Part shown: one piece after another, positions 52,276-56,192 of the stretch
How positions within the stretch are numbered: the stretch's first letter is position 1
Layout: each line of letters begins with the position of its first letter
The notes under the pieces: model-generated
Database searches by the model: none
What the model was told of the DNA's origin: nothing
What the model saw: the letters and a program-made list of their open reading frames with translations, nothing else
IMG/VR virus record: IMGVR_UViG_3300010371_000030
Coordinates: 41,833-105,832 of that record
DNA: 64,000 bases
Direction: 5' to 3' (one strand)
Source of the DNA: a virus
Translations under genes and position numbers: made by a program

Positions 52276-52602
52276 CTAGCGGCCGGGCGGAGAGCCCGCT
52301 GGCTTCGTCGGAAAGGCGGGCGCCGTGAACGACACCGAGACGTCGATGCCCGTCGTGGGGTCCAGCGGGATGGGCTCCGCTCCTCTGTCGGCGTTGAGCG
52401 TGATGTACGTCTCGCCCACGTCCGTGACGCGCGTCTGGATGGCGCCAAGCCGCCCGAAGCGCCCGTTGATCGTGATCTCGGGCTTCACCCCGAACATCCC
52501 CTGGAAGGCGCGGGACACTTGAGCGATCTGGGCCGCCGTCGGGGCGTCGAGCATGACGGCTCCGGCGAGCCTCGGGTGTTTCGTCTTCATTCGTCTAGAC
52601 AT
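52276..52602 (-). CDS. Hypothetical protein
   Basis: 108 aa. Confidence 0.55.
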   Translation of the reverse strand: MSRRMKTKHPRLAGAVMLDAPTAAQIAQVSRAFQGMFGVKPEITINGRFGRLGAIQTRVTDVGETYITLNADRGAEPIPLDPTTGIDVSVSFTAPAFPTKPAGSPPGR

Positions 52603-53155
52603 TCCCTTCCACCCCCAATCGTTACATCAGATGTTTACATACGGCGCGTGGCCTTTGGAGGACATAGCGGCGATGGACGCGTGTTCGTCAGGACGGCGGA
52701 TGCTGATACATCTGAAAACCATGTTCCCGTCCGTCCGCACATCCACAATGCGCCACCTATCGCCGCCAAGAGGGTGGCGGAACACCCGCTCAAGTCGATT
52801 ACCTTGTCGGGCACCCAGCCATCGCACTTCCGAACAGTCGCCCGTTCGCCTCGGGCCATCCACACATGTACTTCGGTATCATCAGATACAAGCGTGGTGT
52901 CTTGTCGCACGAGAGCCAGCCGGTTGCCCTCTTGGTTCCGCATGTTCCACAGGAACGTTCCTGCCTTCCAAACGGCCGGAGGGGGCGGAGGCGGAGGGGC
53001 GAACCTGGACCTGAACGCATCAAGCTTCACAGAATCACCTTCCTGGAACGGCTTGCCATCATCCTGCTTGGTTTCCGCCCACGACCACCCCGACCTATGA
53101 CGGACGGGGCGCGCGTTGGCAGGGGACGCCGCGCTGTCACGGCGTCCCGCCTAGC

Positions 53156-55075
53156 TCACTTCCTGCGGCCGTCGCCCTTCGGGGCGCGCCTCGGAGGCGG
53201 AGGGGGCTTGTCGCTGCGCAGGTAGGTGCTGATCATCGCCAGCGGTTCCTGCGGAGCCACGAGCTCCCTTCCTCGCACATAGTCGTCGACGCTGAGTCCC
53301 GACCAAGCGGCGATCGCCGCGAGGCTGTCGACGTCGGGCCGCTTTCCCTGCGCCATGCGTGTGAGCGTCGACGCGCTGATCCCTGCCTCCTGGGCGAGCT
53401 GCTTCCAGTTCTTCCCCCTGGCGATGCGGACCGCGTCGAGAGCCGAGAAGAACGCATCGGCGTCGAACGCCCCCGCACGGATGGCAGGCGGCTCAGTTGC
53501 AGGCGAGGACGCCGGCGGGCGAGGGGGCGCCGAGGGATGCCCCGACCCGGTGGATTTGACTCTTGCAATTCGGTTCGCCATGTGCAATTTGACTCTAGCA
53601 ACTGGCCGCTGCGGCAGCAAGCGCCCAGTGAGGAGGGGCGAAGCGGGGCGGTGGCGCAACGCCTCGATGTCCTCAAGCGTCGCTCGGGCCATGTCCGTCG
53701 CGACGGTCGGGTTGGCCAGCAGCCACTCCTCCAGGTGCGCGAGCATCGGGATGTCGCCGTACACGATGGTGCCGTCCGCCTTCTTGGCACGCAGCTCCTG
53801 GAGCAGGATGACCTTGTCCGACAGCGTAGCGCGCGCCTCGGCCGCCCCGGTGGCCGCGTGGAACGGGTTTGGCGTCCGAGCCGGAGCGAGACGCCACGAG
53901 CCGACCTTGGCGTGTCCCACAGTCTTGATGTCGAAGTCCAGCACGCCTGCGTCGCCCATCTTCGTCAGGAGCGCGGCCAGGACGGTGATCTGCTGGCTCC
54001 GCTCCGGGGCGAGTGTGAGCGCCCCCAGACGGTCCGCTCGTGACAGCGCCTCGTGGATCTCCGCCGCGGAGTAACGCTGTGAACCCTTCGACATCTCCGC
54101 CAACGTCACGCGGATGTTGTTACGCATCCCCTCGGTGTCGATGGACGTCTGGCGCTGGTAGCGGCGCGGTCGGATGTCGATGCTCTCCAGGACGGCGCGA
54201 CCATCCTCCACGAGAACCGTGAGCGCCTCCGTCACCAGGACGATGCCGCTGGCACCCAACGCAGCGGCGGTCTCCGCCACGAGTCCGACATCGCGGTGCC
54301 GCATACGGTCGTGGATCTGCTCGGCCGTGGCGTATCCCTCCGCGGGAAGCATCGCCAGCACGGCATCCCGGAAGCGCGCGGTGATCTCCTCGCCCTCGGG
54401 CGTCGCCGGGCGCATCTCTTCCTTCACGGAATCCAGCCCCGTCGTGTCGCGGTGGAAGTCTTCCACGTACAGCGGCCCCTCCCTGCCCATGACGTTGCCG
54501 GGAAGGTCCGTCGAGATGACCAGACGCCCGTCCCCCTTCCAGTCGTACATGACATCGAAGGCGCCATCGCTGTCGGCGGTGATGAGACGGAGGCGAGTGC
54601 CCGGCTGGATGTGGACCTCGATGGGCTTGCCGCCCTCGACATCATCGAGCGAGCGCGACGCGATGACCTCGACGGCGCGACGCTCGCCCGGCTCGTGGAA
54701 CGGAAGCGAAGCGATGTAGGCGAACGTGTCGACGGGCGACGGCCATCCGGGCGCCTCGCCGATGGGGTCGAAGGCAAAGAACCAGAACAGCTGGTCGTTG
54801 TCCTTTGCGTCCGTCCCGTGGAGGCGCGTGGTCCAAGGCACGAGCTCAACGCCAGGCCCCTCCGCCTTGTCCACCTGGATGGCCGGCAACACCAGGAGCA
54901 GGTAGTCTGGATGCGGGTACCACCCCGGCCCCTTGTACATGAAGTCCTTGTAGTTGGCCTCCGCCTGCGCGACGGTGATCCGCTCGTGGCTGTTGGGCCG
55001 GAAGATTCCCGGGTCCACGGACTTGTACCCGAGCATGGTGAAGATGGCCGGAACGATGGAGCTGTGAGGTTTCAT
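53156..55075 (-). CDS. Mosaic multidomain protein: KGPGWY domain, two winged-helix-like segments, C-terminal XRE-family HTH
   Basis: NWKQLAQEAGISASTLTRMAQGKRPDVDSL HTH; ATAEQIHD and YSAAEIHE wHTH-like starts; GAGGAG RBS. Confidence 0.75.
   Translation of the reverse strand: MKPHSSIVPAIFTMLGYKSVDPGIFRPNSHERITVAQAEANYKDFMYKGPGWYPHPDYLLLVLPAIQVDKAEGPGVELVPWTTRLHGTDAKDNDQLFWFFAFDPIGEAPGWPSPVDTFAYIASLPFHEPGERRAVEVIASRSLDDVEGGKPIEVHIQPGTRLRLITADSDGAFDVMYDWKGDGRLVISTDLPGNVMGREGPLYVEDFHRDTTGLDSVKEEMRPATPEGEEITARFRDAVLAMLPAEGYATAEQIHDRMRHRDVGLVAETAAALGASGIVLVTEALTVLVEDGRAVLESIDIRPRRYQRQTSIDTEGMRNNIRVTLAEMSKGSQRYSAAEIHEALSRADRLGALTLAPERSQQITVLAALLTKMGDAGVLDFDIKTVGHAKVGSWRLAPARTPNPFHAATGAAEARATLSDKVILLQELRAKKADGTIVYGDIPMLAHLEEWLLANPTVATDMARATLEDIEALRHRPASPLLTGRLLPQRPVARVKLHMANRIARVKSTGSGHPSAPPRPPASSPATEPPAIRAGAFDADAFFSALDAVRIARGKNWKQLAQEAGISASTLTRMAQGKRPDVDSLAAIAAWSGLSVDDYVRGRELVAPQEPLAMISTYLRSDKPPPPPRRAPKGDGRRK
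53554..53601. promoter_or_regulatory. Pair of operator-like boxes ATTTGACTCT(T/A)GCAA
   Basis: Copies at 53554-53568 and 53587-53601 flanking an in-frame ATG (53581) upstream of the HTH domain. Confidence 0.6.
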
Positions 55076-55171
55076 GGCTGATCTCCTCGGGCGCCTTCGG
55101 GCGCCTCTGACGCCGAATGCCGGCGAGCCCGAAGGCTGCCGGCACGCGCGCGTATGGCTGAGACGGCCCAG

Positions 55172-55564
55172 CTAGTCGTGTTCGCCTTCCTCGGCCAGCA
55201 TCGCGGCCGGTCCGTCGAGATTGGACAGGCTGACCACATTCGCCTCCACGAAGCGGTAGCCGTCGGTGGGACGCCCGATGGAGCGGTACATGAACGCGCG
55301 GCGCGGCGCGGCCATCGCCAGCAGCGTAGGAACGGGGTGGATGAGGTCGCCCCAGTTGACGGAGCCGCTGTTCGCGGCCCATCGGCTGTACAGCCGGGCG
55401 AGCCTCGTCATCTCATCCACCCCCATCGGCGCCTTGACGTCGGCCGGGAGCAGGCCGGGCACCGGGGAAGGGACGAGGATGACGCCCGTGTCGAGGTGTT
55501 CTTGGGCGTCGACCAGCCCCACGAGCTTGCCGGTGATGTCTAGAAGCTGCGCTCTCACCTTCAT
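55172..55564 (-). CDS. Hypothetical protein
   Basis: 130 aa. Confidence 0.55.
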   Translation of the reverse strand: MKVRAQLLDITGKLVGLVDAQEHLDTGVILVPSPVPGLLPADVKAPMGVDEMTRLARLYSRWAANSGSVNWGDLIHPVPTLLAMAAPRRAFMYRSIGRPTDGYRFVEANVVSLSNLDGPAAMLAEEGEHD

Positions 55565-55568
55565 GGCG

Positions 55569-56192
55569 TTATCTCATGTCGTGCTTGATGATGTAGTCGT
55601 AAGCATCGTCGAACAGCGCCCGGATGGGATCGGCCGCGCTCCGCCCGACGGTCGCGATGCGCGTCCAGGCGGAGTCCTTGCCCATCTCGGAGTCGATGGC
55701 AACTCCGTTGTCGATGGTGTAGAACTTGACCCGACGGTTGAGACCGACCGAGACCACGAAGCGCGCGATGGAGTGCTCCGCCTCGGGCGAGATGTTCACG
55801 TGGCCGAGGCCCACGCACATGATCGCCATCGTCCCGTGCCCCCGAACAGGCGACTGCCGAGGCTCGGACGTCGGCGCGGGCTCCGGGGTGCCGTCGAGGT
55901 CCAAGCCGTCGGAGCGCCGCATCACCTGGACGCTCCGAGAATCGCCGCGCCGGAAGCCGCCCGGTGGAAGCGTCCCAGGCGGGGTGTCCGTTCGGAGGGC
56001 CATGTACTTACGCCAGGCGATGGCCTCATCCTCCGCGCCCGGACCGCCGTGGGGGCCGGACACGCCGGTGCCCTTGTAGTGGTATCCGTGCGCCTCGCTG
56101 GGCTTCTTGGTCCACTCGCCACGAGGGTGCTTCAGATACCACTGCTGGATCTTGATGATCCACTGGTTCCCACGCTGTCTCTCGGTCGCCAT
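55569..56192 (-). CDS. Hypothetical protein
   Basis: GGAGG RBS before MATERQRG. Confidence 0.6.
   Translation of the reverse strand: MATERQRGNQWIIKIQQWYLKHPRGEWTKKPSEAHGYHYKGTGVSGPHGGPGAEDEAIAWRKYMALRTDTPPGTLPPGGFRRGDSRSVQVMRRSDGLDLDGTPEPAPTSEPRQSPVRGHGTMAIMCVGLGHVNISPEAEHSIARFVVSVGLNRRVKFYTIDNGVAIDSEMGKDSAWTRIATVGRSAADPIRALFDDAYDYIIKHDMR

Follow-up and report, generated by a model that had tools for sequence, protein, structure and literature searches.

Why does a phage protein carry part of a bacterial repressor near its end, and what could that part do for the phage? The question is raised by a 639-aa protein, referred to below as the carrier, from the virus record IMGVR_UViG_3300010371_000030. 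The stretch of DNA analyzed, called the window, comprises the final 64 kb of this 105,832-bp record. Comparison with a syntenic relative showed at the sequence level that a 432-bp piece of a bacterial capH-like locus was inserted into the carrier tail, or was retained here while the relative lost it. The piece encodes most of an XRE-type repressor together with its putative operators, and it stops short of the last helix of the repressor.

The captured segment and its boundaries

A single relative of the 639-aa open reading frame (ORF) was identified among 5.8 billion proteins. This protein, P0002, has 519 aa, is 64% identical over residues 1-476 and ends ~20 residues past the aligned part in a Pro-rich basic tail. 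It is encoded on L081, a 3.8-kb contig from a JGI metagenome that shares synteny with the window (76-85% nucleotide identity). L081 runs uninterrupted across the insertion site, where it contains a single GCCCCCTCC and no insert, and in the window the flanking repeats start 432 bp apart. Homology with bacterial capH-like loci in blastn stops at position 53207, which is the junction, and the captured piece consists of the promoter/operator boxes and codons 1 to ~125 of ~150. The 8-9-bp flanking repeat is compatible with joining at microhomology and also with a precise deletion that took place later in the lineage of L081. A transposon origin was rejected, as the insert ends revealed no terminal inverted repeats and no transposase, and solely the short flanking repeat is present. 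The locus is a clean natural case of a domain from a captured host gene being inserted into a disordered tail, and a relative preserves the empty site.

Pfam HTH_3 matched residues 548-589 of the carrier (E 2e-6), and AlphaFold2 produced a confident five-helix helix-turn-helix (HTH) domain at residues 539-599, for which the top Foldseek matches were ClgR, DdrO and the N-terminal domain of CapH. PHROGs placed the ORF in generic "transcriptional repressor" families only. In the AlphaFold2 model of the closest named member of the repressor family (Sorangium sp., 75% identity), the five HTH helices are followed by a linker, a helix at 98-108, a loop and a second helix at 114-133. The family profile aligned to the phage copy at positions 6-98 of 122 only, and the phage copy stops three residues past a conserved Leu-Arg pair, in the loop ahead of the last helix of the family. 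By analogy with related repressors, this pair (Leu619-Arg620) is a putative peptidase cleavage site. The helix that contains it carries the EPLAMISTYLRSD motif, where conservation in the family is highest, and the phage copy has kept this motif in full.

Conservation before and after the cut was then compared at columns at least 95% conserved in 120 bacterial members. The phage copy differs at one of the 47 columns before the cut (Leu to Ile), and the mean deviation of the bacterial members at the same columns is 0.7, which places the phage copy within the bacterial range. After the cut, none of the five conserved columns remains. The retained part of the captured repressor thus shows no decay.

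An initial annotation of this DNA had proposed a C-terminally truncated repressor fused into a phage protein, with an abrupt switch to PPPPPRRAPK. The fusion is borne out by the syntenic contig that lacks the insert, and the truncation by full-length homologs, which do not end at the same point and go on for ~25 residues and one more helix. The switch after YLRSDK is likewise real. However, the PPPPPRRAPK that follows is no chance read-out but the native tail of the carrier, in frame, because L081 reads straight through and the repeats lie 432 bp apart and in frame. The possibility of a frameshifted remnant of the XRE gene was rejected, as the tail aligns with the native tail of the relative.

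The donor family, its operators and its operons

Using the insert protein as query (125 aa), 2,054 matches were obtained at E <=1e-3, and the best 120 of them are 105-158 aa in length and 59-81% identical. ORFs around the XRE gene were extracted and clustered in 80 genome loci, which come from Actinomycetota, Chloroflexota, Nitrospirota, Eremiobacterota, Acidobacteriota, Proteobacteria, Desulfobacterota and Saccharimonadales. In 71 of these loci a ~188-aa Peptidase_M78/IrrE gene (Pfam E 1e-16) follows directly downstream on the same strand. The commonest neighborhood, found in 53 of the 80, has a divergent upstream operon encoding a ~85-aa Multi_ubiq protein, a ~130-aa protein with no Pfam match and a ~480-aa ThiF/E1 protein. 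Ten further loci combine Multi_ubiq with a DUF6791-ThiF fusion and DUF6527, the combination published for Type II Bub operons (PMC11601596). The bacterial loci were matched by the PADLOC models capP and E1-E2 and, weakly though over its full length, by capH. By its gene context, the donor family is predicted to be the repressor half of a CapH/CapP-like repressor/M78-peptidase switch that lies divergent to ubiquitin-like (Bub/6E-type) operons.

Genes for CapH and CapP accompany 31% of 544 Bub operons (Ye et al., PMC11601596), and CapH/CapP-like pairs beside "6e" ubiquitin-like operons were already noted by Lau et al. (10.1101/2022.04.27.489752). The donor-family neighbors resemble Bub operons in their Multi_ubiq ubiquitin-like protein (Ubl) and ThiF-type E1, and the ten loci with DUF6791-ThiF and DUF6527 fit Type II. 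The middle gene of the commonest neighborhood, however, has no DUF6527 Pfam match, and the Bub assignment of that variant is provisional. This middle gene, located between Multi_ubiq and ThiF (e.g., L004, L011, L008 and L030; about -770..-390), is conserved, and its product may be an uncharacterized E2-like or peptidase component of a Bub-related variant.

The XRE repressor is 60-80% identical over at least eight phyla (L001-L080), including one Saccharimonadales genome of the candidate phyla radiation (CPR), and such similarity between distant phyla is indicative of horizontal spread. No variation was seen in the recognition helix across the family. In addition, helix 1 of the C-terminal domain surpasses the DNA-binding helix in conservation. 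This pattern of conservation suggests a strong dual constraint, from pairing and from peptidase recognition, together with wide horizontal spread. A search with the XRE family profile against PDB sequences gave no match, and full-length DdrO was a structural match to the bacterial family model.

The segment ahead of the HTH contains two boxes, TTGC(T/A)AGAGTCAAAT on the coding strand, that are identical at 14 of 15 positions, lie 33 bp apart start to start and flank an internal in-frame ATG, one on either side. No further copy at <=3 mismatches was found in the window or in the whole 105.8-kb phage genome. Promoter zones were defined as -150..+60 of the XRE gene in the 80 bacterial loci. Within these zones the box occurs at 1.28 per kb at <=2 mismatches, compared with 0.0045 elsewhere in those loci (~280-fold), and at 2.8 per kb compared with 0.035 when <=3 mismatches are allowed. 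The derived bacterial consensus is RATTGC(T/A)AGAGT(C/G)(G/C)AAT, with ATTGC/GCAAT-type arms in many loci, and box 2 differs from the bacterial consensus ATTGCAAGAGTCGAAT by one mismatch. Bacterial loci often have two sites, 32-50 bp apart, and their upstream site usually reads TTGC-TAnAnT, an extended -10-like element. The N-terminus of the closest homologs, MxxxIA(R/T)V(K/E)S, is a translated box 2. The boxes are therefore most likely the operator and promoter of the bacterial repressor family. An assignment as operators of a phage immunity repressor was rejected, since the rest of the genome contains no such box and the family is found in a bacterial context.

A generic two-hexamer sigma-70 scan of positions 52500-55700 called no promoter, and the -10-like reading of box 1 is drawn solely from comparison with the bacterial loci, from which promoter activity is inferred. 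The internal ATG lies 10 nt past the -10-like hexamer and has no Shine-Dalgarno sequence; therefore, a transcript from box 1 would be nearly leaderless.

Further proposals of the initial annotation, on the origin and context of the fragment, also held up. Its suggestion that a host-type XRE fragment had been taken together with its operator boxes agrees with the family homology and with the promoter-zone enrichment, and the search that it called for, for the same boxes upstream of bacterial homologs, recovered them. The neighborhood analysis confirmed both the pairing of the homologs with an IrrE-type peptidase and their link to defense-type loci, as the homologs face ubiquitin-like, defense-type operons. 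The peptidase was indeed left behind, with none encoded in the phage genome.

The bacterial relatives share several features with CapH/CapP of the E. coli MS115-1 CBASS: a small repressor of the XRE type in which an N-terminal HTH is joined to a C-terminal domain of two helices, a gene for an M78 peptidase directly after that of the repressor, a divergent position of the pair relative to the regulated operon, and a conserved hydrophobic-Arg pair in or after the first C-terminal helix. They are, however, remote in sequence from E. coli CapH (E about 2e-3), and their peptidase of ~188 aa compares with a 242-aa capP model, of which the peptidase part alone aligned and not the GAF domain. The phage copy retains the N-terminal XRE HTH and putative operator sites in its own promoter region. 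It differs from CapH in being embedded in another protein, inside a co-directional ORF and not divergently upstream of a regulated operon, and in having neither the complete C-terminal oligomerization domain, which comprises two helices in the bacterial relatives, nor an adjacent cognate M78/IrrE peptidase gene. The Ubl (Multi_ubiq), E1/E2-E1 (ThiF) and DUF6527 gene set of the Bub operon is absent as well. Across the whole 105.8-kb phage genome, PF06114 (M78/IrrE peptidase), Multi_ubiq/Ubl, ThiF/E1 and a second XRE copy were not found. The phage element is a fragment of a CapH/CapP module and is not to be classed as such a module, because the complete C-terminal domain, the adjacent peptidase and the divergent operon are all missing.

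Among other systems, ImmR/ImmA of ICEBs1 and phage phi105 shows a similar logic of an HTH repressor and a metallopeptidase anti-repressor on mobile elements; those elements encode the complete pair, with which they control their own induction (10.1101/2022.04.27.489752), whereas the phage has only a repressor fragment. DdrO of Deinococcus is likewise an XRE repressor whose C-terminal domain mediates dimerization, and the phage fragment ends at the position equivalent to three residues past its Leu-Arg; DdrO differs in having three C-terminal helices and in controlling DNA-repair genes, not a ubiquitin-like operon. To our knowledge, no phage-borne truncated DdrO has been described. The protein gp7 of phage GIL01 reportedly locks host LexA on DNA and blocks LexA cleavage, and in this respect it is said to hold a cleavable host repressor system "off" in a similar manner. 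It is reported, however, to be a small LexA-binding co-repressor and not a captured repressor piece, and to serve lysogeny control and not counter-defense.

Possible roles of the fragment in the phage

The function of the fragment was considered in the light of the closest characterized switches. CapP is activated by single-stranded DNA and cuts CapH at F82/R83 in helix 1 of the C-terminal domain (10.1101/2022.04.27.489752), and in an AlphaFold3 model a hydrophobic surface of CapP binds the final helix of CapH (10.64898/2026.05.16.725639). IrrE cleavage of DdrO falls between Leu106 and Arg107, ahead of the last helix, and leaves an inactive monomer (PMC6868357). By analogy with these systems, we tentatively favor, at a likelihood somewhat short of even, a repressor mimic in which a peptidase-blind HTH, paired via the carrier or via helix 1, would keep a host Bub-type operon off. 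The phage would make the DNA-binding domain early in infection, either within the 639-aa protein or as a 141-aa product of the captured promoter, and the HTH would occupy the conserved operator of the host operon. The host peptidase would neither recognize nor remove the domain, because the missing last helix is the one modeled in CapH to dock on the peptidase. The Bub operon would then stay shut even after the host repressor had been cleaved in response to infection or DNA damage. Because the missing helix serves in dimerization as well, pairing would have to come from elsewhere: from the carrier, from a mixed dimer with the host repressor via the retained helix 1, or from binding at two adjacent sites. 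Because the recognition helix is invariant and the operator is conserved across phyla, one such domain could address many hosts.

Several points weigh against this proposal. The CapH HTH alone is monomeric with no detectable DNA binding, CapH(1-82) does not repress (10.1101/2022.04.27.489752), and DdrO(1-106) is likewise a monomer (PMC6868357). It is this inactive product of cleavage that the phage fragment resembles. A stand-alone "uncleavable repressor", one of the roles suggested in the initial annotation, is accordingly doubtful by analogy unless the carrier supplies pairing, because CapH and DdrO that lack the last helix are monomers and do not repress. Both dimerization by the carrier and a cognate operon in the host are assumptions of the proposal, and although Bub operons have been characterized biochemically, their authors could not demonstrate antiphage activity and left the biological role open (PMC11601596). 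The case is also a single one: no other phage in the IMG/VR or GenBank phage sets has this arrangement, an IMG/VR scan for the XRE family gave no relatives, and the carrier is the only long fusion of the XRE domain among the 5.8 billion proteins. Furthermore, the in-frame state can be explained by selection on the carrier tail alone, and, as phage DNA replicates, the additional operators on it could instead titrate away the host repressor.

CapH/CapP-type switches govern many bacterial immune operons, CBASS, DISARM and Bub among them. Repressor mimicry against such switches, if confirmed, would be a new class of counter-defense and, for the first time, would point from the phage side to an antiviral role of Bub operons. 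Capture of exactly the DNA-binding part of a Bub regulator along with its operator is a circumstantial phage-side sign that the operon matters in infection. The full version of the proposal, in which a stolen, peptidase-blind and carrier-paired repressor domain disarms an immune operon at its transcriptional switch, nevertheless appears rather unlikely. In the literature searched there was no precedent for phage-borne CapH/BrxR-like repressor mimics, which does not prove their absence, and no phage countermeasure against the CapH/CapP-type switch itself. The locus also represents a concrete and cheap test system of one protein, one 15-bp operator and one reporter.

The alternative that survives best, possible though not probable, is that the insert is a neutral or nearly neutral passenger. 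The fragment would have been captured accidentally by illegitimate recombination in a tolerant disordered tail, the HTH would be useless to the phage, and the insert would survive merely by keeping the carrier frame and the basic tail. In favor of this reading, the fragment is cut short on either side compared with the bacterial locus, its flanking 8-9-bp repeat is of the kind typically seen where microhomology joins form, it is a singleton, and it is equivalent to the inactive cleaved form of CapH and DdrO. An unrelated 408-bp insert only ~180 bp away indicates that the region accepts junk or morons, and selection for the conserved basic tail accounts for the in-frame state, which has a chance of about 1 in 9. 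However, the fragment departs from the family at only 1 of 47 conserved positions, the two boxes are undamaged and near consensus, and the break falls neatly in an inter-helix loop, outside the fold elements; sequence intactness is a weak argument in either direction without the age of the insert.

A role of the captured DNA in cis appears improbable. Here the promoter/operator would be what matters, with the host repressor on the phage boxes gating the internal promoter or blocking read-through, and the downstream phage genes would switch on once the host peptidase destroys the repressor, i.e., on induction of the defense operon. Both boxes have remained intact, agree with the consensus of the bacterial operator and coincide in part with a -10-like element, and they lie inside an operon-like run of minus-strand genes with more ORFs downstream. 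Retention of 90-plus codons of intact HTH is left unexplained, however; the downstream genes are also present in L081, there in the absence of boxes, and extra operators could derepress the host operon through titration.

We consider it similarly improbable that the fragment acts as a decoy or inhibitor of the host peptidase, or as a poison subunit of the host repressor, through an exposed helix 1 with its Leu-Arg bond. Full retention of EPLAMISTYLRSD would agree with such a role, and IrrE reportedly prefers a monomeric substrate with an exposed site (PMC6868357). The helix modeled to dock on CapP is, however, the missing last helix (10.64898/2026.05.16.725639), and a poison subunit would derepress the operon, which is no help to the phage if the operon is antiviral. 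Finally, although the record is a metagenome-derived contig of an uncultured phage, an assembly chimera or sequencing artefact is very improbable, as the phage sequence is collinear with L081 on both sides of the insert, the insert is in frame with clean junctions at a short repeat, and a chimera normally breaks collinearity at one point only.

The carrier protein and its surroundings

The repressor mimic may depend on pairing through the carrier, and searches with the carrier offered few clues to its function. A tblastn search against 50,697 GenBank phage records gave no match, an IMG/VR scan revealed no relatives, and a search of the ESM Atlas gave no usable match. No Pfam or PHROG family was detected beyond the HTH region, and Pfam on the carrier homologs was also empty. 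For the beta-rich and helical parts, no family or structure found with Pfam, PHROG, ESM Atlas or Foldseek gives a function. The protein is composed of a beta-rich N-terminal domain, a helical middle and the Pro-rich basic C-terminal tail that now holds the insert. In the AlphaFold2 model of the 639-aa protein, residues 475-528, which cover the junction, the boxes and a Pro-rich linker, are disordered, and a short helix at 614-620 precedes the tail. The HTH is thereby tethered to the carrier by a flexible stretch of ~55 residues in this model.

Table 1. Features of the carrier gene, the captured segment and adjacent DNA in window coordinates
Feature	Position	Strand	Details
Carrier gene, 639-aa phage protein	53156..55075	minus	GGAG ribosome-binding site 7 nt ahead of ATG
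Beta-rich core, ~60 residues	54450-54630 (carrier residues ~150-210)		Motifs G..D-G-F..D..G..G..Y-E-F
Left flanking direct repeat	53632..53639	minus	GCCCCTCC
Foreign segment of bacterial origin	53208..53631	minus	~424 bp; 432 bp = 144 codons including one flanking repeat, in frame
Box 1, operator-type (putative)	53587..53601	minus	With extended -10-like element TGCTAGAGT (hexamer 53592-53597)
Internal in-frame ATG, residue 499	53579..53581	minus	Start codon of closest bacterial homologs
Box 2, operator-type (putative)	53554..53568	minus	Within first codons after internal ATG; encodes IARVKS
XRE helix-turn-helix, residues 539-599	53279..53461	minus	Pfam HTH_3/HTH_26; AlphaFold2 predicted local distance difference test (pLDDT) above 90
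Retained helix 1 of C-terminal domain, residues 610-622	53210..53248	minus	EPLAMISTYLRSD motif; contains conserved Leu619-Arg620
Right flanking direct repeat	53199..53207	minus	GCCCCCTCC; native carrier sequence restarts here
Native Pro-rich basic carrier tail, residues 624-639	53159..53206	minus	Aligns with P0002/L081 tail; takes the place of the repressor's last helix
Perfect 9-bp GC-rich stem, 8-nt loop, no T-run	53123-53148		GGGACGCCG ... CGGCGTCCC; just past carrier stop codon
131-aa ORF, GTG start, Pro-rich N-terminus	52635..53030	minus	Inside second insert; GC content at third codon positions (GC3) 64% vs 88% in carrier

The phage record is 100% complete according to CheckV, and its structural module is of the myovirus type, with terminase, portal, sheath, tape measure and baseplate genes; the 106-kb phage is lytic-looking and myovirus-type. 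The carrier gene belongs to an operon-like series of minus-strand genes with more ORFs downstream, and neither PHROGs on ten ORFs neighboring the carrier gene nor Pfam on the neighboring ORFs gave a match. The GC-rich stem past the carrier gene may be a factor-independent terminator of a high-GC type or an RNA stability element.

A second segment of ~408 bp (52618-53025), unrelated to the first, is also absent from L081 and occupies the spacer that directly follows the carrier gene. It gave no Pfam, PHROG or bacterial-locus match and is either a moron or non-coding filler. Within the carrier, the ~60-residue beta-rich core is common to 13 database proteins, several of which are stand-alone proteins of 69-114 aa, and has no Pfam model. 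This core is predicted to represent an uncharacterized small domain family.

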